Made by a program: the position numbers and the translations under genes. Under the pieces are notes generated by a model. The model saw only the letters and a program-made list of their open reading frames with translations, made no database searches and was not told the origin of the DNA. Shown here one piece after another: positions 274-63,688 of a stretch of 64,000 bases of DNA (the stretch's first letter is position 1; each line of letters begins with the position of its first letter). This DNA comes from Thermoanaerobaculia bacterium (GTDB taxonomy: Bacteria; Acidobacteriota; Thermoanaerobaculia; Multivoradales; UBA5704): contig DASYTJ010000026.1 of NCBI GenBank assembly GCA_036002325.1, positions 2,416-66,415 of the forward strand, written 5' to 3'.

Positions 274-2475
274 CTACTTCACCGGCTGTGCCGCGCCGCT
301 GTGGACGGCCTGCTCCATCAGGGTGCGGATCTCCTTCTTCGCCTCCTCGCCGGCGGCCTCCTGCTGGCGTCCCAGCTCTTCCTGCTGGCGGCCGAGCTCC
401 TCCTGCTGGCGGCCGAGGGCTTCCTGCTGCCTTCCCAGCTCTTCCTGCTGCTGGCCCAACGCCTCCATCTTCCCTTCGAGCTCGCGCTCGCGCCGCTCGA
501 GGGTCGCGTCATCGTCGTCGCGGCCCATGCGCTCGGCCGAAAGAGCCGCCATCTGGGCGCCGAGGGCTCCCTGCTGGCCTCCCAACTGGCCCTGCCTGGC
601 GCCCAGCGCTCCCTGCTTGGCGCCCAGCTCACCCTGGCGCGCCCCGAGAGCTCCCTGCCTGGCGCCCAGCTCCATCTGCGGCTTGAAGATCTCCTCGGCC
701 TGCTTGAGCACCGCCGGGTCGCGGACGACGTACTCCCTACCGTCGTGGCGGAACCACAGGATGGCCTCCTTCGAGTCGCCGCGGAGCCGCTTCAGTTTCC
801 GGAAGTCGTCCATGTCGCCGCTCATCATGCTCGCCGAGTCGTTGCCGTAGAGCAGGATCCAGGAATCCCCATCGTCGCTCGAAACCCAGGAGTAGCCGTG
901 TTTCCGCGGAGCGGGCGGAGCCGGCGGCGCCATGGGAGCCGCCGCGTAGGCCCGCGGAGCGCCGGGAGGGACGCCGGCCCAAGCCGTCCTGGCTGCCGGC
1001 AGAGGGGCGCCCGGTCGCGGCGCGGCGGCCGGCAAGGGAGCGCCGACCAGAGCAGGAGCGGCCATCGGCGCCGCACCGGGAGTCGGCCCCGCCGCGGGCC
1101 TTGGAGCCGCGGGGGCCAAGGCCCCTGCCACACCACCGGGGACACCGCCTGCCACCCCACCAACAACGCCTCCAGGGATACCGCCGGCGACCCCGCCCTT
1201 GACGCCCCCCGGAATGGCACCCTCAACCCCGCCGATGACACCACCCACGACACCGCCCGGAATCCCCTCCGCCACAGCCGCGGGCGCCTCCGCCGGCTCG
1301 GCTTCTTCGGCCGCCTCGGCCACTGCCGGCGCCGTCGCTTCGGTCGCCTCGGAAGCGGGCTCGGCCTGCGCCTCCGGCGCCGGCTGCTGGGCCACGATAC
1401 GGAGGGGGATCAACCCCGCGAGAACCGCCGCCCCTGCCAGCCACCACCAGCCGGAGAGACGGCGTTTGTTGTCGGAACTCTGCTGAAGCATCTGAAGTCT
1501 CCTTTTGAGGTTCTGCAGCGAAGGTGAGGCGCCCGCAGCGGCGAGACCGGTCTCTCGCGGGGCCACACCCCACCGGAGAAGAAGGCGTCCGTAGGCCTGG
1601 GGCGCCGACCCCAGGACGCGGAGCACCTCCGCGTCGCACGCGGCTTCGCGGGCGATCGCGTATTCACGGGCGGCCAGCGCCGCCAGCGGATGAAAGAAAA
1701 AGATCCGGTGCGCCAGGGCCGGCACCCAGCCGAGCCAGAGATCCCTCCGGCGCAGGTGGACCAACTCGTGGCAGAGCGTCATCGAGATCTCCGCCGGCGC
1801 GAGACGCGCCAGGCCGGATTCAGGGAGCAGCACCAGCGGCCGCAGCAGGCCGATCGCCTGCGGCGTCCGTACCTCCCGCGAGCCGCGCAGATCCGGCTGC
1901 CGGCGCAGCGCCAGCAGCGCGCACAGCTCGGCGAAGATCGTCCGGATCCAGGCCTCTTGCAGCGGCTCCGCGCGCCGTACCACCCCGCGGGTGAAGCGGA
2001 GCTGGCGGAAAGCCCTGACGGATTGGAGAGCGAGGCCGGCGAGCCAGAGGAGGAGAATCGCGGTCCATCCAATCCGTTTCGCCCCCTCCCGAACCCTCAC
2101 CCCTGACCCCTCTCCCGCCCCCTCCCTCCCCACCTCACCGGGAGAGGGGAAAACAACATCCGGAGAAACGGCTTCTTGCTCGATCTCGCTCCCTCCTCTC
2201 CCGGTGGGGGCGGGAGGGAGGGGTCGGGAGAGGAGGGCCGGGGTGGTGAGGGCCGGCAGGAGCGGCAGCTCGACGGGGACGATCCAGACGAGTCCCACCA
2301 GCAGCTTCAGGCACGCGGCCCACCAGAGGCCGCAGCGCACCGAGGCCGGCAGGCGCGGGAAGAGGCGGCAGGCGAGCCAGACGGCGGCGATGAACAGGGC
2401 GCCCTGGAGGGAGGTCCGCAGCAGCGCCTCGATGAGAGTTCCGGAACCGAGCCCCACCGCCGCGAGCGCGCTCAT
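274..2475 (-). CDS. BlaR1/MecR1-type M56 family membrane metallopeptidase signal transducer with a non-canonical C-terminal half
   Basis: ATG 2475 overlaps the stop of the upstream BlaI-like gene (ATGA). The N-terminus has TM segments, and the HEXXH zinc motif sits in M56 context (LCHELVHLRRRDLWLGW). The track ORF 274-3018 is over-extended at its 5' end. The C-terminal half has GGV repeats, a Pro/Ala linker, a globular segment and heptad repeats instead of a penicillin-binding sensor. Confidence 0.85.
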   Translation of the reverse strand: MSALAAVGLGSGTLIEALLRTSLQGALFIAAVWLACRLFPRLPASVRCGLWWAACLKLLVGLVWIVPVELPLLPALTTPALLSRPLPPAPTGRGGSEIEQEAVSPDVVFPSPGEVGREGAGEGSGVRVREGAKRIGWTAILLLWLAGLALQSVRAFRQLRFTRGVVRRAEPLQEAWIRTIFAELCALLALRRQPDLRGSREVRTPQAIGLLRPLVLLPESGLARLAPAEISMTLCHELVHLRRRDLWLGWVPALAHRIFFFHPLAALAAREYAIAREAACDAEVLRVLGSAPQAYGRLLLRWGVAPRETGLAAAGASPSLQNLKRRLQMLQQSSDNKRRLSGWWWLAGAAVLAGLIPLRIVAQQPAPEAQAEPASEATEATAPAVAEAAEEAEPAEAPAAVAEGIPGGVVGGVIGGVEGAIPGGVKGGVAGGIPGGVVGGVAGGVPGGVAGALAPAAPRPAAGPTPGAAPMAAPALVGAPLPAAAPRPGAPLPAARTAWAGVPPGAPRAYAAAPMAPPAPPAPRKHGYSWVSSDDGDSWILLYGNDSASMMSGDMDDFRKLKRLRGDSKEAILWFRHDGREYVVRDPAVLKQAEEIFKPQMELGARQGALGARQGELGAKQGALGARQGQLGGQQGALGAQMAALSAERMGRDDDDATLERRERELEGKMEALGQQQEELGRQQEALGRQQEELGRQQEELGRQQEAAGEEAKKEIRTLMEQAVHSGAAQPVK
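2084..2252. repeat. GC-rich composite palindromic repeat element (two inverted hairpin modules) lying in-frame inside the BlaR1-like CDS
   Basis: CCCTCACCCCTGACCCCTCTCCC...CACCGGGAGAGGGG and its inverted partner CCCTCCTCTCCCGGTG...GGGAGAGGAGGGCCGGGGTGGTGAGGG flank a lower-GC spacer of about 40 bp. Same sequence family as 46478-46529 and 47716-47867. Confidence 0.6.
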
Positions 2476-2861
2476 GGCTCCTCCTTCCGCTGCGATTGGA
2501 GCTTCGCCACCAGCTCTTCCAGCTCGGCCAGCTCCTCGTCCGAGACCCGCGCCTCCTCCGTGAGGTAGGTCACGAAAGGCGACACGTTGCCGCCGAGCGT
2601 CTTCTCGACGAATGTCCGCACCACGTCCCGCATCACCTGCCCGGGGCTGGCCGGCGAGAAGTACTGATAGACCCCCGCGACCTGCCGGCGATCGAGATGT
2701 CCCTTCTGGCGCAGGCGCTCCATCATCGTCAGCACCGTCGAGCGGGCCAACCCGCGCGGCACGCCGAACCCCTCCGCCGCCTGTCCCACCGTGGCGCCTC
2801 CCTGCTCCGCCACGTACTGCAGCAGCGCCAGCTCTTGATCTCCGATCGACTTGGGCTTCAT
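2472..2861 (-). CDS. BlaI/MecI/CopY family winged-helix transcriptional repressor
   Basis: 129 aa. The N-terminal wHTH (LALLQYVAEQGGATVGQAAEGFGVPRGLARSTVLTMMERLRQKGHL) and C-terminal dimerisation helix are typical of the family. GGAGGG lies just upstream of ATG 2861. The gene is translationally coupled to the M56 gene. Confidence 0.9.
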   Translation of the reverse strand: MKPKSIGDQELALLQYVAEQGGATVGQAAEGFGVPRGLARSTVLTMMERLRQKGHLDRRQVAGVYQYFSPASPGQVMRDVVRTFVEKTLGGNVSPFVTYLTEEARVSDEELAELEELVAKLQSQRKEEP

Positions 2862-2896
2862 CGTCCCTCCGTCTGCCTACATCTGTCATCATCCTA

Positions 2897-2922
2897 CCCT
2901 TGACGACATCTGTCGTCAAGGG
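2897..2922. promoter_or_regulatory. Putative BlaI/CopY-type operator (12-bp perfect inverted repeat around an ACAnnTGT core)
   Basis: CCCTTGACGACA-TC-TGTCGTCAAGGG about 35 bp upstream of the blaI-like start. A second box, TACATCTGTC, lies at 2878-2887. Confidence 0.6.
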
Positions 2923-3069
2923 TGTACGCCGACGAGCGGGGAAAGTTTTGAGGCTTCCTCGAAACCTGCGAGGCACCTTGGTAGAGGAGGGACCGATCGG
3001 AACGAAGAGCAGCAGCAAAAGGCCGGCACCCGACGGGGTGTGGCGTCGTATTGGCCCGATTGAGTCTCC

Positions 3070-3663
3070 CTACTCCCCCCACCGCACCTCGAACGTGCAG
3101 TAAGGGCTCCCTTCCCAGATGCAGGCGACCTCCCGGGCCGAGCCCTGGACGCCGAAGGCCTTGAGGTAGCCATGGAGGATGCCGACGAAGGTCTCGCAGG
3201 GCGTCGGCCGGCCGGGCCGGTAGAGGAGGGCGCGTCCCGGCTCGATCTGCGGCGGCGGCCAGGTCTGGTTGGCGTAGTACGTCGTGTCGTTCTGCGACGC
3301 CTGCTCGAGGACTTGGAAGGCTTCCAGGATCGTCTTGCCCTGGAACATCTCGGGGTTGGCGCGCAGACGGCTGGGGATGATCTGCTCGCCCAAACGCGCC
3401 ATCGAAAGGCCCGCGCGCGCCGCCCGGTCGCAGATCAAGGCAACGTCACGGCCGGGATACATCTCCTCCGGAAGAAAGACCTTGTTCCCCAGATCCCACT
3501 TGATGGATTCCACCAGCGCCGGTCCGCCGAGGACTCCCGCGGCGGCCAGATAGGCAATGGCATAGCGACCCTTGGTCTTTCCCTCGAAGCTCTGGACGAA
3601 GCGCTCGTGGGCGGCGCTCTTGGCGAAGGCGACCGCGGCAAGCTGCGGGCTTTCGGAGATCAT
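3070..3663 (-). CDS. V4R (4-vinyl reductase-like) domain protein, function unknown
   Basis: 197 aa. The C-terminal Cys/Gly pattern PCETFVGILHGYLKAFG...EVACIWEGSPYCTFEV matches the V4R small-molecule-binding domain signature as I remember it. Confidence 0.55.
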   Translation of the reverse strand: MISESPQLAAVAFAKSAAHERFVQSFEGKTKGRYAIAYLAAAGVLGGPALVESIKWDLGNKVFLPEEMYPGRDVALICDRAARAGLSMARLGEQIIPSRLRANPEMFQGKTILEAFQVLEQASQNDTTYYANQTWPPPQIEPGRALLYRPGRPTPCETFVGILHGYLKAFGVQGSAREVACIWEGSPYCTFEVRWGE

Positions 3664-4410: not shown

Positions 4411-4947
4411 CTAACTGGGTGCGACCTTCCGGTATCTCGTCGCCTTTCGTCCTCGGCTGTACGTCTCGATCCCCAGCTCCTTATCCGCCCACATCTTCTC
4501 GAGGATCCGAACGAGGGTGGACCTTGCTGGTTCGTATCCAAGCGCCTCTTCCAGATCGTGCCGGTCGAAAACCTCGGGGAGTTGGGGGAGCACGTTCTGG
4601 ACCGCCCGCTTGAGCCCTCCCGGCGACGTCAGCCGGATCTTCTCCGGTTGCCCGGCAGGGTGTTGCTTCTCTACTTGCGTCCCAACAGGGACTTGCTCCT
4701 CGCTTGAGCCTTGCGGCCCACCTGTCTCTTGAGTCTCACCAGGGCTTTGCGTCTCATCCGGTAGCGGCTTCTTGCCTTCCTGCTCTTCGCCCCACGGGTC
4801 CCCTCCTGCGGAGGGGACTGCCGAAGCGAGCCACAGCATCTCGAGCGCGCGGAGCTTGGCGAGATGCGCGGTCCGGATGAGCTCGAGATCCTCCTCGTAT
4901 TGCTTTTCGAGCGCGCGCCGGCGCTTCTCGTATTCATTGTGCCGCAT
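4411..4947 (-). CDS. Hypothetical protein with an N-terminal coiled coil, an acidic/Pro-rich linker and a C-terminal winged-helix-like segment
   Basis: ATG 4947 (MRHNEYEKRRRALEKQYEEDLE) is preceded by AAGGGA. The C-terminus DLEEALGYEPARSTLVRILEKMWADKELGIETYSRGRKATRYRK looks like a wHTH. The stop lies 8 nt before the next gene. Confidence 0.5.
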   Translation of the reverse strand: MRHNEYEKRRRALEKQYEEDLELIRTAHLAKLRALEMLWLASAVPSAGGDPWGEEQEGKKPLPDETQSPGETQETGGPQGSSEEQVPVGTQVEKQHPAGQPEKIRLTSPGGLKRAVQNVLPQLPEVFDRHDLEEALGYEPARSTLVRILEKMWADKELGIETYSRGRKATRYRKVAPS

Positions 4948-5038
4948 CGAATTCCCTTTGGCCGCATTGCGATTGCAGTTCCAATCCATCGTATCCGATC
5001 GCTACGGACATGAGCGGCGGCCTCCATCGAAGAGGAGC

Positions 5039-5342
5039 GGACGGTTCGCCCCGAGGTATGGACGGTTCGTGCCGCGCGATGGGCCACAACGAGCGAGGTC
5101 TGGACGGTTGGCGCCGCTTCCGCTACCGGCCACTATCCCACGTGGACGGTTGCAGCCGCGAATCCAACTGCCCACTCCGGGTTGTGGACGGTTCGCGTCT
5201 CGGGCCGCAAACCGTCCAGACCTCGGATGGACGGTTCAAGCCGGGACACGAACCGCCCGCACCGCGAGCCCAACCGTCCACTCCGCGGCCGGAACCGCCC
5301 GCCTCCCGGTCATCGCAGCCACGGGACCGGCGCCAACCGTTC
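5039..5342. repeat. Phased array of 11 copies of an 8-bp core (6 direct GGACGGTT, 5 inverted AACCG[T/C][C/T]C) on a 21/42-bp register
   Basis: Direct copies start at 5039, 5060, 5102, 5144, 5186 and 5229. Inverted copies start at 5210, 5251, 5272, 5293 and 5335. The array is intergenic between the wHTH-like gene (-) and the beta-glucosidase gene (+). Confidence 0.8.
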
Positions 5343-5443
5343 CGACTGCCGCGATGGACAGGTAGAAGCCGGCTCGAACCCTCCGTGGGCCGGAGCGGCT
5401 CTCGACATTCGCGGTCTGTGGCTGCGATAGAGTCCGGCATCCA

Positions 5444-6793
<1,350 letters not shown>

Positions 6794-24772: not shown

Positions 24773-27700
24773 CTAGATCACGGGCAGATCCGGCCGGCGG
24801 GACGGTGCATTGTCCTCGGGCTCTTCGGCGATCGAGAGGGAACGGGCGAGTAGCTCGTGGATGACCAGGAGGTCGACCGGCTTGGTCAGGTGATGGTCGA
24901 ATCCCGCCTCCCGCGCGAGGTGCTGGTCCTCCTCCTGTCCATAGCCGGTCAAGGCCACGAGCAGGGCTCTTGCGGTCCGCCGACGCCGCCGCAGCCGGCT
25001 GGCGACCTGGTAACCATCCAGCCCGGGCAAGCCGATGTCGAGCAGGACGACCTCGGGATGGAACGAGTGGGCCTTCGCCAGCGCCGCCGGTCCGTCGTGA
25101 GCGGTCTCTACTTGGTGCCCCTTCAAGCGCAGGAGGAGGGCCAGACTCTCGGCCGTATCCACGTTATCGTCCACCACCAGGACGCGGCGCGGCGGGACAA
25201 CGAGAGGGGAGAGCGCCGGACTTACGACGATCCTGTCCGCGGCCTCGCCGTGGCGTTCCGGCGCCGTCTCCGCCGGTGGCAGGACGGGCAAGCGCACGAC
25301 GAGCTCGCTGCCCTGTCCCGGCCCCGCGCTATGGGCTTCGACGCTGCCGCCGTGCAGCTCTACCAGGCGTTGCACCACCGTCAATCCGATCCCCAACCCT
25401 CCCCGCGCCCGATCGGACGAGCGGTCCGCCTGCACGAACAGGTCAAAGACGCGCGGCAGCGTTTCCGGAGCCATGCCGATGCCGTCGTCGCGCACTCGCA
25501 CGACGACCCCGCCGGGAGGCTGGGGCCCGCCGACCGCCGGCTCCGCCGTCACCCAGAGATGCCCGCCCCTGAGGGTGAACTTGGAGGCGTTGTTCAGCAG
25601 GTTGCCGAAGACCTGTTCCAGCCGGACGGGGTCCGCGTCGAGGAAGACCGGCTCGCCCGGCAGCGACAGCGACAGCTCCTGGCCGCGCGACTCGATGAGG
25701 TGCCGGGTCAGCCCCACCGCCCGCTCGAGAACGGTCGCCAGCTCCACCCGCTCTCTTTGCAGACCGACCTTTCCCCCGGTGATGCGGGACACGTCGAGCA
25801 GGTCGTCGATCAGCCGGGCCATGTTGCGAATCTGCCGGTTCATCATGGCCCGCGCCTGCTCGACCGCGGCGCCATCGGCGTTGGCGGTCTCCAGCACCTG
25901 CGCGGCATTGAGCAGGGGTGCCAGGGGGTTGCGCAGCTCGTGAGCCAGGAGGGCCAGGAACTCGTTCTTGCTGCGGTCGGCCGCGGCCAGCTCCTCGACG
26001 CGCTGGTGTAGAACCTCTTCCAGTTGCTTGAGCTTGTCCACGTCGACGAGCAGGATCACCGCGCCGTCGATCTCGTTCTCCAGGGTCCGGTACGGCCGGA
26101 CGCGCAGCGAATACCAGCGCCTCTGGCTGTCCTGGACCTCGCGTTCCCTGGGGCTCGCCGTGTCGATCACCTCCGCCAGCAAGGGCTCCAGATCGGGAAC
26201 GCTGAGCTTGAGCTTGATGTCGCCGATCGGCCGGCCGACGTCGGTGGGGACCAGGTTGAAGATCTCTCCCGCCCTCGGCGTGAAGCGCCGGACGCGCAGG
26301 TCCGGCCCCAACATGATGATGGCCATCTCGACGCTGCCGAGAAGGTTGATCAGATCGTTGCTGAGCTGGTTGAGCTCCAGGTTGCGGTTCTGCAGCTCGT
26401 CGTTGACCGTGGCCAGCTCTTCGTTGCTCGACTGGATCTCCTCCTTGGAGGTCTCCAGCTCTTCGTTGATGCTCTGCAGCTCCTCGTTGGCCGACTGCAC
26501 CTCCTCATTGGCCGACTGCAGCTCTTCGTTGGCGGCTTCCTGCTGCTCGATCACCGATTGCAGGTATTCGCCCGTGGCGGCCAGCTCCCGCGCCAACCGG
26601 GCGTTCTCCCGTTCTACGGCTTCCTCCTCCGAGACAGCCCGGGGCCGGGACCTCGGGGCCTTGCCCCTGCCCCTGCTCCCCCGCGGCGGAGAGGCAGGTG
26701 ATGGAGCGGGCTCTTCGAACAGGACCAGGAAGCCGCGTTCCCCTGCCGAGCTTCCTTTCAGTGGAACCACCTCCAGGTTGACCTCCCGGGTGCCGCCATC
26801 AGACTTGACCCGCACCCCCTCCTCGCGGACCGGGGCGTCGTCCTTCCTGGCCCTGTTGACCGCGGCCCGCAGGGTGACCAGCAGCCCTTCCCGCGTCATC
26901 CTGAGCAGGTTCAGGCTGGCTTTGCCCGGCGCCGGCGCCAGATAGGGTCCGGTGTCGCCGCGGAACTGCAGGATCTCCAGATCGGCGTTGACCAGCACGC
27001 CGGGCGGGGCGTATCTCGCCATGAGGATGCGGTCGGCCTCTTTCTGCACCTCGGATACGGCCCCGGCTGGCTGCCAGCGGCCCGGGCCGTGGCCGGGCCC
27101 GCTTCGACCCTGGTAGAGGCCGGCAGCCTGGCCGAGGGTCACCCGGTGCGTCCCCGGCTTCTTGGCGTAGATCTTGTGCTTGGCGTCTTCGGCCTCGAAC
27201 AAAGTGCGGTAGGAGCCGATCGTCTCCGAGCTCCCCAGCAAGAGGAAGCCGGCCGGCTTCAAAGCAAAGTGCAGGCGTGGCACGAGCTTCTGTTGCAGCG
27301 CCGGCTCCAGGTAGATCAGCAGGTTGCGGCAACTGACGAGGTCGATCTGGGAGAAGGGCGGGTCGGTCAGCACGTTGTGCCGGGCGAACACGCACATGTC
27401 GCGGATCGGCTTGCTGATGCGGTAGCTGCCGTCCACCTCCGCGAAGAACCGCCGCAGGCGCTCCGGCGAGACGTCGTGCGCGATGTTCTGCGAGTACACG
27501 CCCTTGCGGGCCTTGTCGATGCACTCTTCGTTCAGGTCGGTGGCGTAGACCTGGACCGGGAGCTGGCTGCCCCTGGCCGCGGCGAGCTCGGCGAAGAGGA
27601 TGGCGATGGAGAACGCCTCCTCGCCGGTCGAGCAGCCCGGCACCCAGACGCGCAGCGGCTCTTGCCCGGAGCGGTTCTTGAACAGCTTGGGCAAAACCCT

Positions 27701-28657
27701 CGTCTTGAGCGCCTCGAACGTCTCCGGGTTGCGGAAGAAGCTCGTCACTCTGACCAGGGTGTCCTGGTAGAGGGCCTCCACCTCGCCGGGATTCTTCCGC
27801 AGGAAGCGCGCGTAGTCCGGCAACCCCTGCATCTTGTGCAGGACCATGCGGCGGCTGATGCGGCGGTAGAGGGTGTTCGCTTTGTAGAGGCTGAAATCGA
27901 CGCCCTTGACCTTGCGCAGGATCTCCAGGATCTTGCCGAGGTCGGGCTCGCCCGCGGACGCCTGGCGCCGGTCCGGCGCCACGTACGGATGCCGGGCGAG
28001 GCGCCCGATCTCCTTGGCGATCTCGTCCGGAGGGAGCACGAAGTCCACGCAGCCGCTGGCAACGGCGCTTTGCGGCATGCTGCTCTGTTGGGCCGTGTTG
28101 TCCTGAGCGAAAGTGATCCCGCCCTCGGCCTTGATCGCCTCCAGCCCCAAGGTGCCGTCGGTGGCGGTGCCGGAGAGGATCACGCCGATCGCTCTCTGCC
28201 CCTGCTCCTTCGCCAGGGAGCGGAGGAAGAAATCGATCGGGTGGTGCCGGCCGCGAGCTTCCTCCCGGGGAAGCAGTTGCAGGACTCCCCGCGAGATGAC
28301 CATGTTGCGGTCGGGAGGGATGACGTAGACGCGGTCCGGCTTCACCCGCAGCTCATCCTGGACTTCCGTGACCGGCATCGCGGTCGTCCGGGACAGGATC
28401 TCCGCCAACAGGCTGGGGTGTTTGGGGGCCAGGTGCTGCACCAGGACGAAGGCCATGCCGGTGTCGACCGGCAGCGCGCCGAGCATCTGGATGAAGGCCT
28501 CGAGCCCGCCGGCCGAGGCGCCGACGCCGACGATCGGGAAAGGGGAGCTTGCGGCCTGCGCGCTGGTTTCTTCCACTGGAGGTTCAGCCGCGGCAGGCGG
28601 AGCCGGTTCGGTTTCGGGAGGTGAGGGTGAGGTTGGCCTCCGTCTTCGGGCCGCCAT
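24773..28657 (-). CDS. CheB methylesterase - CheR methyltransferase - PAS - hybrid histidine kinase with a C-terminal receiver
   Basis: ATG 28657. CheB (IVGVGASAGGLEAF...VLVQH), CheR (VWVPGCSTGEEAFSIAILF), NEEL-type coiled coil, HisKA (LAHELRNPL), HATPase (GGLGIGLTVV) and REC (VLVVDDNVDTAE). The track ORF extends to 28786. Confidence 0.9.
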   Translation of the reverse strand: MAARRRRPTSPSPPETEPAPPAAAEPPVEETSAQAASSPFPIVGVGASAGGLEAFIQMLGALPVDTGMAFVLVQHLAPKHPSLLAEILSRTTAMPVTEVQDELRVKPDRVYVIPPDRNMVISRGVLQLLPREEARGRHHPIDFFLRSLAKEQGQRAIGVILSGTATDGTLGLEAIKAEGGITFAQDNTAQQSSMPQSAVASGCVDFVLPPDEIAKEIGRLARHPYVAPDRRQASAGEPDLGKILEILRKVKGVDFSLYKANTLYRRISRRMVLHKMQGLPDYARFLRKNPGEVEALYQDTLVRVTSFFRNPETFEALKTRVLPKLFKNRSGQEPLRVWVPGCSTGEEAFSIAILFAELAAARGSQLPVQVYATDLNEECIDKARKGVYSQNIAHDVSPERLRRFFAEVDGSYRISKPIRDMCVFARHNVLTDPPFSQIDLVSCRNLLIYLEPALQQKLVPRLHFALKPAGFLLLGSSETIGSYRTLFEAEDAKHKIYAKKPGTHRVTLGQAAGLYQGRSGPGHGPGRWQPAGAVSEVQKEADRILMARYAPPGVLVNADLEILQFRGDTGPYLAPAPGKASLNLLRMTREGLLVTLRAAVNRARKDDAPVREEGVRVKSDGGTREVNLEVVPLKGSSAGERGFLVLFEEPAPSPASPPRGSRGRGKAPRSRPRAVSEEEAVERENARLARELAATGEYLQSVIEQQEAANEELQSANEEVQSANEELQSINEELETSKEEIQSSNEELATVNDELQNRNLELNQLSNDLINLLGSVEMAIIMLGPDLRVRRFTPRAGEIFNLVPTDVGRPIGDIKLKLSVPDLEPLLAEVIDTASPREREVQDSQRRWYSLRVRPYRTLENEIDGAVILLVDVDKLKQLEEVLHQRVEELAAADRSKNEFLALLAHELRNPLAPLLNAAQVLETANADGAAVEQARAMMNRQIRNMARLIDDLLDVSRITGGKVGLQRERVELATVLERAVGLTRHLIESRGQELSLSLPGEPVFLDADPVRLEQVFGNLLNNASKFTLRGGHLWVTAEPAVGGPQPPGGVVVRVRDDGIGMAPETLPRVFDLFVQADRSSDRARGGLGIGLTVVQRLVELHGGSVEAHSAGPGQGSELVVRLPVLPPAETAPERHGEAADRIVVSPALSPLVVPPRRVLVVDDNVDTAESLALLLRLKGHQVETAHDGPAALAKAHSFHPEVVLLDIGLPGLDGYQVASRLRRRRRTARALLVALTGYGQEEDQHLAREAGFDHHLTKPVDLLVIHELLARSLSIAEEPEDNAPSRRPDLPVI

Positions 28658-28773
28658 GGGAACGTAGACTACAACGTTTCGGTGCCGAAGGGGAGTGGCT
28701 CGGCACATTTCCTGCATATCCCATTTCGGGTTCCTCTGTCCCCTCTCGGCATGGCAGTTGCAGTGGAGATTTA

Positions 28774-28817
28774 ACGCAGTACTCAAGCTGTAGCGACGCA
28801 GTACTCAAGCTGTAGCG
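28774..28817. repeat. Perfect 22-bp tandem direct repeat (x2) immediately upstream of the XRE regulator gene
   Basis: ACGCAGTACTCAAGCTGTAGCG at 28774-28795 and again at 28796-28817, in the divergent intergenic region. Confidence 0.85.
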
Positions 28818-62603: not shown

Positions 62604-63688
62604 CCCGCCAGCCTTTCCACGGCGCCGGGCTCCAGATGAACCCTGAGCTGCGGCGCCCGCGGATCGCCCGAGGTCAATGGCTCGCCGCCGCGCGGCCGGG
62701 GCTCGATCAAGGCCAGAGCCTCCAGCACCGCCAGCCGCTGCCGCGGTCCGCCGGCGAAGCTCAGGATGCGATCGCGCGTCACCAGCTCGATCTCATAGCC
62801 GCGCGCGAGATGGTCGACGGCGATCGTCGCCGCCTCGCTCACCAGCCGCTCGAAGCGGCTCCGCTCCGCCGGGTCCTTGAGCTCGCCGACGGCGTTGTCG
62901 AAGAGGATGGAGAGCCGGCGGCTGCGTTCGGTGGCCCGCTCGGTGAAGATCAGCTCGCCGGTGCGCGCCGTCTGCTTCCAATGGATGCCGCGGGGATCGT
63001 CGCCGCGGCGGAAGCGGCGAAGGGCGTACAGATCGTGCCCCGAGCCGGCGCGGCGGCTGGCGTCGTCACCCGCCTGCTCCGTCTCCCGGGGACGCGTGCC
63101 GTCTGAGGGGAACAGCTCGGGGAAGACCAGCACCTCGAGATCCACGCGGTAGCGCACGCCCTTGCGGAAGAAGCCGAAGGGAAAGAGGCTGGAGACGTGG
63201 ACGTAGGGGAAGCGGTGGAAGCCGCGCGTGGCGACCAACATCTCGACCTGGCCGACGCTCTTGCCCCGGCGCGGCAGGTAGGGGATGAGCAGCGGTTGCG
63301 CCGTGCGCGAGAGAGTGAACAGCAGGAACCAGCGCGGGAAGATGCGGGCGCGGCTGCGCAGCGTGAAGCCCACGCTGAAGGGGCGGTTGGCGAAGGTCTC
63401 CCCGGGCGGTTCCAGCGCAGCCTCGAGACCGCGCACGTTGCCGCGCGAGACCAATCCGGAAAGAATGAGGACGGAGAGCATCAGCGCCAGCACCATGTAG
63501 AGAGCGTTGTTGCCGGTGTTGGTGGCGGCGATCGCCACCACCACGGTGAGCAGGACGTACCACAGGCCGACCGTGGTGATGCGGATGCCTTCGGGTACGG
63601 CGCGGCGGGAGAAGATCCCTCCCGGCCGGCGGGAGCTGTGGCGGGACGAATCAGCACCGGCCCGGCGGCCGAGCCAGGAGAGCTTCAC
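62600..63688 (-). CDS. DUF58 family protein (MoxR-associated, vWA-like)
   Basis: GTG 63688 overlaps the MoxR stop. Two N-terminal TM helices. DUF58 signature LRRFRRGDDPRGIHWKQTARTGELIFTE. Confidence 0.8.
   Translation of the reverse strand: MKLSWLGRRAGADSSRHSSRRPGGIFSRRAVPEGIRITTVGLWYVLLTVVVAIAATNTGNNALYMVLALMLSVLILSGLVSRGNVRGLEAALEPPGETFANRPFSVGFTLRSRARIFPRWFLLFTLSRTAQPLLIPYLPRRGKSVGQVEMLVATRGFHRFPYVHVSSLFPFGFFRKGVRYRVDLEVLVFPELFPSDGTRPRETEQAGDDASRRAGSGHDLYALRRFRRGDDPRGIHWKQTARTGELIFTERATERSRRLSILFDNAVGELKDPAERSRFERLVSEAATIAVDHLARGYEIELVTRDRILSFAGGPRQRLAVLEALALIEPRPRGGEPLTSGDPRAPQLRVHLEPGAVERLAG

Follow-up and report, generated by a model that had tools for sequence, protein, structure and literature searches.

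A box array on a two-turn DNA lattice accompanies a family of predicted winged-helix proteins in Acidobacteriota

The window analysed here, a 64,000-nt stretch of DNA from a Thermoanaerobaculia bacterium (contig DASYTJ010000026.1, positions 2,416 to 66,415), carries a ~350-bp array of short boxes of the YGGACGGTT type, located between a minus-strand gene for a 178-aa protein (4411–4947) and a GH1 gene. Judged from sequence comparison across related loci, the array belongs to gene 4411–4947 and not to the GH1 gene. Together with a sigma-70-type promoter, array and gene form a self-contained cassette restricted to Acidobacteriota, chiefly to the class Thermoanaerobaculia. Most probably, the array serves as a docking platform for the adjacent protein, within a cassette that would be autoregulatory and cooperatively occupied.

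Exact counting revealed eight copies of GGACGGTT in the window, all within 5039–5279; 1.98 copies are expected for the window, and at least eight were reached in 0 of 100 shuffles. A search of the window permitting one mismatch gained the boxes at 5251, 5293 and 5335, as well as a twelfth box (AACCCTCC at 5377–5384), exactly 42 bp past 5335 and in register; the eleven boxes listed in a preliminary description of this DNA were all recovered at their positions, the twelfth having been missed there. A position weight matrix (PWM) scan added one weak inverted site at 5124, and no second copy of the array was found elsewhere in the window. Box starts modulo 21 fall at 20 or 0 on the plus strand and at 1 or 2 on the minus strand, giving a mean resultant length of 0.95 at period 21 for all 12 boxes. 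None of 200,000 random placements matched this value at that period, and none of 20,000 did so at any period from 8 to 60, so that the phasing claimed in the preliminary description withstood permutation. The constant small offset between orientations is what would be expected if the contact centre lay near the box middle, in which case a single lattice on a single face of the helix would accommodate both orientations. Conservation is limited to a ~9-bp core, (C/T)GGACGGTT, with nearly information-free flanks, and since Tandem Repeats Finder detects just two short 21-bp stretches, the array is no simple tandem duplication. The earlier picture of phased sites on one face of the helix is thereby retained.

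Loci encoding homologues of the 178-aa protein were taken from assemblies and from one genome per species, and scored for on-lattice recurrences of identical 6-mers in the 700 bp upstream of the gene. Such 6-mers recur almost only at distances of 21, 42, 63, 84, 105 and 126 bp (summed counts: 907 for 42 bp, 724 for 21 bp; background median, 9). The on-lattice score had a median of 124.5 upstream of the homologues, compared with a median of 3 and a maximum of 14 for 73 control segments from the same loci, and 24 of the 26 testable loci exceeded every control segment. The surroundings of the gene vary: upstream lies the GH1 gene in the window, but PIN, TIR-HTH (helix-turn-helix), PFK or AbiEi-like genes at other loci, and downstream are found nonribosomal peptide synthetase (NRPS), BlaI/BlaR1, extracytoplasmic function (ECF) sigma factor or methyltransferase genes, or convergent genes. 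An all-against-all comparison of open reading frames (ORFs) from 31 loci (the window and 30 related ones) yielded no conserved partner gene. Because the other neighbours differ and no conserved partner exists, the GH1 gene is considered an incidental neighbour. Of the two flanking genes whose orthologues the preliminary description named for a check on conservation of the array, it is thus gene 4411–4947 that qualifies. Its earlier nomination as the partner is strengthened, as the same type of array precedes its homologues and box variants track the protein lineage.

The arrays comprise 12–22 sites spanning 300–500 bp. Read in the direction of the gene, they follow an orientation rule, with a distal block of GGACGGTT boxes pointing toward the gene and then a shorter inverted block (AACCGTCC) beside it. 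The window array obeys this rule, with its switch at ~5210–5229, while some arrays are nearly unidirectional (L022).

Two kinds of deviating locus were also seen. One locus (L030) carries a double array of 22 boxes at –671 to –84 from the gene start, composed of two successive convergent sets (~7 forward, 5 inverted, 6 forward and 2 inverted boxes), which looks like a duplication of the whole operator. At four others (L029, L033, L031 and L035), a full array is kept beside a frameshifted or truncated gene. L029 and L033 stem from MFD-labelled metagenome-assembled genomes (MAGs), with sequencing errors being possible, and L031 and L035, from other MAGs, lack the winged-helix part; an array may persist longer than its gene, or a paralogue may act on it in trans.

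The core sequence itself differs between loci. While (C/T)GGACGGTT is used at twelve loci (111 boxes), others employ GGGCGGTT, GGACAGTT, GGAAGCTT, GGACGC or GATCCGGA. Paralogues within one MAG differ in their box (GGGCGGTT vs. GGACGC in U3379; GATCCGGA vs. GGACAGTT in 12C18O_34), and orthologues from different MAGs have it in common (L022 and L024; L012 and L018, at 51% protein identity). Box type hence appears to follow the protein lineage rather than the host genome. Between orthologous arrays, boxes are 95.5% identical and spacers 86.2% (Fisher p = 2e-8), a gap somewhat inflated by the exact-match definition of a box, and indels measure 21, 42, 63 or 105 bp. Inside arrays, the box 7-mer reaches a density of 12.5 per kb, compared with 0.14 per kb outside them (89-fold enrichment). 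These comparisons, together with the position of the proximal box close to a conserved –35 element (see below), point to protein and array forming a cognate protein–operator pair.

Array-like sequences beyond the family were sought by scanning metagenomes for three spaced GGACGGTT boxes. Among the matches listed, most were unrelated tandem repeats (coding repeats, GGTTAGG-type satellites and 42-bp perfect repeats), a family gene was present in 0 of 120 loci, and only one locus resembled the family arrays. This orphan array (L149:6173–6391, on a 7004-bp metagenome contig) consists of nine CGGACGGTT boxes at exact 21-bp spacing, then two inverted ones, agreeing with the family arrays in lattice and orientation rule; 116 nt after it lies a gene of the PD-(D/E)XK (PDDEXK_2) nuclease/transposase family. 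Two unrelated metagenome contigs, in which no family gene was detected, contain palindromic sets of GGGACGGTTCT boxes (L084:520–600, 3370–3492 and 5650–5743; L128:20–118), e.g. three forward and three inverted boxes at ~22-bp spacing, with three sets in 12 kb in L084. They look like a different regulon with a similar core.

In principle, another factor such as a global regulator could bind the boxes, leaving the 178-aa gene as a target and not the source of the binder. Compatible with this are the dependence of the protein–box link on co-occurrence and covariation, the orphan array before an unrelated PD-(D/E)XK gene, and the retention of GGACGGTT across proteins just 44–57% identical. A single global factor is nevertheless disfavoured, because it would predict one box type per genome, yet paralogous cassettes of one genome differ in a manner that tracks the protein lineage. 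As the array also sits beside this gene at 24 of 26 loci whatever the neighbours, and the box 7-mer is ~90-fold depleted outside arrays, we regard binding by another factor as quite improbable.

GC content by codon position is flat across the array (0.67–0.71, all six frames); in the flanking genes, it amounts to 0.85–0.92 at third (GC3) and 0.44–0.51 at second positions (GC2). An ORF that runs through the array (5010–5648) has no Pfam match and overlaps the GH1 start codon. The flat profile in six frames rules out a translated repeat, which the preliminary description had named as a possible refutation. An Rfam search of the array returned a best E-value of 0.61, far under the gathering score, ruling out a known RNA family. 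As single-stranded RNA, the array does fold better than shuffled sequences (z = –3.4 and –4.8 for the two strands), but this excess is due to the inverted copies of one box and would be shown by any inverted-repeat set; single-orientation arrays such as L022, which are unable to form a hairpin, exclude an RNA or cruciform hairpin as a conserved feature. The open frame across the array and the folding of its convergent boxes are, then, what could be cited for an array devoid of protein-binding function, i.e. a neutral tandem repeat, a translated repeat or an RNA/DNA hairpin. Such an explanation is already contradicted by the comparative sequence data, in which boxes and lattice are kept across proteins ~40% identical while spacers diverge, and we consider it scarcely plausible.

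An AlphaFold model of the 178-aa protein, built from a 32-sequence alignment, predicts one long N-terminal helix (residues 3–42), a disordered Glu/Thr/Pro-rich linker of ~55 residues (~48–105) and a winged helix (111–174). Long helix and winged helix were predicted with confidence (predicted local distance difference test, pLDDT, >90), and the C-terminal domain alone attained a pLDDT of 84. In the homologue alignment, conservation is very high on the surface of the N-terminal helix. The protein has no sequence match in Pfam (none at E < 0.1), NCBIfam or the PDB, a profile search against PDB sequences returning a single chance match (E = 2.6). By structure, Foldseek placed the C-terminal domain nearest to the winged helices of DNA-bound SlyA, RovA, PadR and CodY, the best match being the SlyA–DNA complex 3q5f (E = 7e-3, prob 1.0, template modelling (TM) score 0.66 over 71 columns). 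The family numbers 493 representatives at 50% identity, and its named members are all hypothetical proteins of Acidobacteriota, mostly Thermoanaerobaculia. Likewise, when the winged-helix domain was searched alone, the distant homologues were all unannotated Acidobacteriota proteins of 130–144 aa. A search for RNA evidence found the window sequence only in DNA runs of soil metagenomes, and the window itself derives from a soil metagenome.

The linker (window 4632–4806) varies in length and displays recurring (S)ET, ETQ and SETL motifs family-wide, which suggests a short linear motif, possibly with Ser/Thr phosphorylation sites. The gene has a GC3 of 0.73, below its neighbours' 0.85–0.92; this may stem from the low-complexity linker or from a different history.

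A consensus promoter and terminator scan of 4800–5600 gave no matches; the promoter emerged only from locus comparison, as a sigma-70-like sequence (cctCTTGCc-N17-19-cTAcGCT) common to ~18 loci and situated 40–60 bp before the ATG. In ~8 loci, the gene-proximal box lies 6–7 nt upstream of the –35 element, and at one locus (L011) an inverted box pair brackets it. In the window, CTTCGA (5027–5032) takes the –35 place of the family sequence cctCTTGCc, 6 nt after the proximal box, with TAGCGA (4999–5004) or, 5 nt further downstream, TACGAT (4988–4993) as candidate –10 elements. A box just upstream of the –35 element that does not cover it has the geometry of phased activator arrays and would, by analogy, fit activation; a box inside the promoter spacer would repress. 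Of the cooperative-repressor array put forward in the preliminary description, the cooperative regulator array can stay, whereas its effect may be repression or activation, given this position of the proximal box.

A real and non-coding array, linked to its gene family-wide, that preserves its lattice, lies beside a promoter and covaries in box type with the protein lineage can be accommodated in the following mechanism. One C-terminal winged helix would contact each ~9-bp box, (C/T)GGACGGTT, the 40-residue N-terminal helix would dimerise or oligomerise, and the ~55-residue linker would let the DNA-binding domains engage either box orientation. Every box being centred on the 21-bp, i.e. two-turn, lattice, bound domains would lie on one DNA face where neighbours can interact, and strongly cooperative binding would result in switch-like occupancy. 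With the proximal box 6–7 nt upstream of the –35 element (~8 loci), occupancy would control the cassette's own promoter and any co-transcribed genes. The parts of this scheme that we infer are contact between protein and boxes, oligomerisation, whether occupancy activates or represses, and the physiological output.

Several observations weigh against such a self-regulating cassette. Three loci (L008, L032 and L034) have few boxes or a different operator, and the orphan array on its 7-kb contig has no family gene with it. The protein–box link draws on co-occurrence and on a covariation that is confounded with phylogeny, and the structural matches of the C-terminal domain are generic (E ~7e-3). 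In the window, the promoter hexamers deviate from the family consensus, with a 22-nt gap between CTTCGA and TAGCGA; this copy may be weakly expressed or use another promoter. Finally, 12–22 sites are far above the needs of autoregulation, and something beyond simple feedback is probably going on.

Site number is also the starting point for viewing the array as a structural, chromosome-organising element, in which a long filament or bridged complex would act as a landmark, anchor, insulator, pairing site or centromere-like handle, and autoregulation would follow as a side effect, as in the case of plasmid centromere-binding proteins. A strict integer lattice of 12–22 sites over 300–500 bp is more than a promoter needs, many copies, apparently monocistronic, are followed by a convergent gene and have no evident output, and the highly conserved surface of the N-terminal helix suggests a partner or higher-order assembly. 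Coiled coil, linker and DNA-binding domain are moreover arranged as in the filament- and bridge-forming H-NS-like and Rok proteins (PMC6936261). On the other hand, a partner NTPase is missing and the 31 loci have no neighbour gene in common, which also removes the centromere-like option of the preliminary description. Up to three paralogous cassettes with different boxes per genome would be unexpected for a centromere, plasmid and phage collections do not contain the protein, and the register between proximal box and –35 element, conserved in ~8 loci, argues for promoter function. We therefore deem a primarily structural role unlikely. A partition centromere specifically was ruled out, as no motor gene adjoins the array.

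A more speculative variant, to which we give only limited credence, is a nucleoid-type protein with a 'private address', polymerising only on its own 300–500-bp array and representing an unrecognised kind of chromosomal element. Here, the 21-bp lattice may be set by the 40-residue coiled-coil unit (~60 Å, ~18–21 bp) of a filament that follows one face of the DNA, and the two opposed box blocks may nucleate filaments that meet head to head. The outcome may be a heritable bistable switch or a structural landmark. Orthogonal copies within a genome may diversify by joint change of box and recognition surface, and the Glu-Thr-rich linker could provide a phosphorylation input.

The genomic setting bears on two further classes of phased repeats. 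Family loci reside on chromosomal contigs of 0.3–8.4 Mb; one 5.9-Mb contig carries two of them, and a genome or MAG may have as many as three. Searches of IMG/VR, PLSDB and INPHARED found no relatives of the family, and a single weak match (E = 0.006) came from PHROG; a phage or plasmid origin of the cassette was ruled out, there being no relatives in the former three collections. Direct and partly inverted repeats at two-turn spacing upstream of a winged-helix gene would suit a plasmid, either integrated or former, with the array as its iteron-type replication origin or incompatibility locus. This iteron option of the preliminary description was dropped: the protein, a single winged helix plus coiled coil, lacks the two-winged-helix Rep architecture and any Rep family match, 4900–5500 is devoid of DnaA boxes, even with 2 mismatches allowed, and of an AT-rich unwinding element (the most AT-rich 30-bp window is 57% AT), the PLSDB, INPHARED and IMG/VR searches gave no matches, and a chromosome can carry several loci. 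An iteron origin is accordingly very improbable. Convergent boxes directly upstream of a small winged-helix gene could also be read as opposed polar sites of an RTP/Ter-like replication fork trap, with the gene encoding the contrahelicase; in Bacillus subtilis, TerI and TerII adjoin rtp. Such a trap would form a single locus per chromosome, at the terminus, where the sign of GC skew changes. We attach almost no weight to a fork trap, since genomes harbor several paralogous cassettes with different boxes, some arrays are nearly unidirectional (L022), GC skew shows no sign change at 5 kb in the window, and the conserved promoter register would be left unexplained.

Table 1. Coordinates of the array, its boxes and the associated genes in the window
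Feature	Position	Strand	Description	Basis
Whole array	5039..5384	.	12 boxes, 21-bp lattice, 17 lattice slots, non-coding	Phasing, flat codon-position GC
Box	5039..5046	+	GGACGGTT; nearest to gene 4411–4947, AACCGTCC in gene orientation	PWM score 17.8
Box	5060..5067	+	GGACGGTT	Exact count, PWM
Box	5102..5109	+	GGACGGTT	Exact count, PWM
Box	5144..5151	+	GGACGGTT	Exact count, PWM
Box	5186..5193	+	GGACGGTT	Exact count, PWM
Box	5210..5217	-	AACCGTCC as read on + strand; in orientation-switch zone	Exact count, PWM
Box	5229..5236	+	GGACGGTT; final one in + orientation	Exact count, PWM
Box	5251..5258	-	GGGCGGTT, one mismatch	Mismatch search, PWM
Box	5272..5279	-	GGACGGTT	Exact count, PWM
Box	5293..5300	-	GGGCGGTT, one mismatch	Mismatch search, PWM
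Box	5335..5342	-	GAACGGTT, one mismatch	Mismatch search; under PWM listing threshold
Twelfth box	5377..5384	-	GGAGGGTT, one mismatch; ends 59 nt ahead of GH1 ATG	Mismatch search, PWM
Promoter and leader region of gene 4411–4947	4948..5038	-		Comparison with ~18 loci
Gene of presumed cognate binding protein	4411..4947	-	178 aa; predicted helix 3–42, disordered linker ~48–105, winged helix 111–174	
Co-oriented downstream gene	3729..~4403	-	~223 aa, signal-peptide-like N-terminus, no family match	ORF list, profile search

The gene downstream of the regulator gene (3729..~4403) starts ~8 nt past the regulator's stop codon and is for this reason probably co-transcribed. The same arrangement occurs at one related locus (L001) and is not conserved at other loci; this gene is possible cargo and no conserved part of the module. 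Other genes accompany the family elsewhere. For instance, a co-oriented NRPS gene (Condensation, AMP-binding) directly follows the regulator gene at L009:3499–6471 and the orthologous loci L013, L014, L016 and L017, and in another subfamily (L020:5954–6391) an NRPS start (TubC_N docking plus Condensation) lies 3 kb downstream; family members next to NRPS genes may be cluster-situated regulators. At three loci (window 2472–2861, L002:4703–7359 and L029:3701–4267), a co-oriented BlaI-type repressor gene is found downstream, accompanied in the window (274–3018) and L002 by a gene for an M56 BlaR1-like sensor. Orthologous synteny seems to account for this neighbourhood better than a functional link would. 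The window additionally encodes a 197-aa protein (3070–3663) with a sub-threshold V4R match (E = 0.0025, 18 bits vs. a cutoff of 31) and no other annotation.

Two other regions of the window are periodic at 21 nt, both of them coding heptad repeats: 101–700, inside ORF 274–3018, where QGALGARQGELGA / EELGRQQ repeats lie in the C-terminal part of the BlaR1-like protein, and 26390–26533, inside ORF 24773–28786, where EELQSANEELQS belongs to the coiled coil of a large sensor histidine kinase. Two isolated GGGCGGTT copies at 63381–63411 stand 23 bp apart, off the 21-bp lattice, and are probably due to chance.

Literature searches found no description of the protein family or of the array. The principle is a familiar one, namely that a cooperative winged-helix protein is provided with phased sites resembling operators or iterons. 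New are the family itself, the strict integer lattice, whose 12–22 sites make up two opposed blocks, the chromosomal cassette as a self-contained unit and, as far as sequences suggest, diversification into orthogonal box/protein pairs within genomes. If the protein binds the array, an unannotated family of ~490 clusters at 50% identity would come with a map of 12–22 cognate sites for each member, including natural orthogonal pairs (GGACGGTT, GGGCGGTT, GGACAGTT, GGAAGCTT and GGACGC) that could be used as parts of synthetic switches. The cassette would then offer a compact system for how helical phasing and site number yield cooperativity and for the evolution of winged-helix specificity. It would also open a view on gene control in Acidobacteria, a dominant soil phylum that is genetically almost unexplored and in which some copies directly precede NRPS genes. 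For genome annotation, a recurring locus of 'hypothetical protein plus odd repeat' would gain a name and a testable role.

Known systems share individual traits with the cassette. In iteron plasmids such as those of P1 RepA, pPS10 RepA and R6K pi, sites at ~two-turn spacing, some of them inverted, lie upstream of an autoregulated winged-helix gene, and specificity diversifies between relatives. The 21-bp lattice (mean resultant length 0.95) is the common element, whereas a WH1-WH2 Rep fold, an AT-rich unwinding element and a DnaA box are missing here, and the loci are chromosomal with several per genome. In the centromere systems ParR/parC, TubR/tubC and pSM19035 omega/heptads, a small protein binds cooperatively to 7–12 short direct and inverted repeats over its own promoter and builds a higher-order complex. 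Their binders are of the ribbon-helix-helix or TubR type, the repeats are spaced at 7–12 or 20 bp, and an adjacent ParA, ParM or TubZ motor is obligatory on the plasmid. The array resembles these centromere-operators in abutting the promoter of its presumed binder (box 6–7 nt upstream of the –35 element, ~8 loci), but differs in lacking such a binder type, a motor gene and a plasmid location.

MarR, SlyA and PadR regulators, whose winged helices are the best structural matches of the C-terminal domain (3q5f, TM 0.66), are commonly autoregulated, bind one or two palindromes and are not known to use a lattice. Unlike them, the 178-aa protein has no Pfam match and no dimer interface from helices flanking the winged helix; the sole other structured element in its model is the 40-residue helix beyond the ~55-residue disordered linker. 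In domain plan, the model is identical, and in size similar, to Bacillus Rok, which combines an N-terminal coiled coil (residues 1–43), a non-basic flexible linker and a C-terminal winged helix in ~180–190 aa (PMC6936261). Rok and H-NS act on AT-rich DNA genome-wide with loose specificity, however, while here the presumed target, a GC-rich 9-mer, is limited to a private array, and homology to Rok, H-NS, Lsr2 or MvaT was found neither in the PDB profile search nor among the top 50 Foldseek matches. Streptomyces BldC is described as a 68-residue MerR-like protein without a coiled coil that multimerises cooperatively, head to tail, on direct repeats of varying number (PMC5859096). Both cases would have the occupancy of a small regulator set by the number of short promoter repeats, but the repeats here are GC-rich, fall on a 21-bp lattice and are split into two orientation blocks.

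Similar in geometry are the BvgA~P arrays at Bordetella Pptx and Pfha, where several units are bound two helical turns apart along one face of the DNA and the proximal site abuts the –35 element; many individually modest sites act jointly, deletions must comprise whole lattice units if phasing is to be kept, and at Pptx six BvgA~P dimers are spaced at 22 bp (PMC7250471). The 21-bp spacing on one face and the last box 6–7 nt from the –35 element (~8 loci) correspond to this layout. BvgA, however, is a phosphorylated response regulator with a LuxR-type HTH that binds head-to-head heptad pairs at 22 bp as no more than six dimers and drives target genes; in the 178-aa protein, Pfam and the AlphaFold model revealed neither a receiver domain nor a LuxR/OmpR-type output domain. 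Instead, an unrelated coiled-coil and winged-helix protein would be served by single ~9-bp boxes in opposed blocks, 12–22 of them, placed before its own gene.

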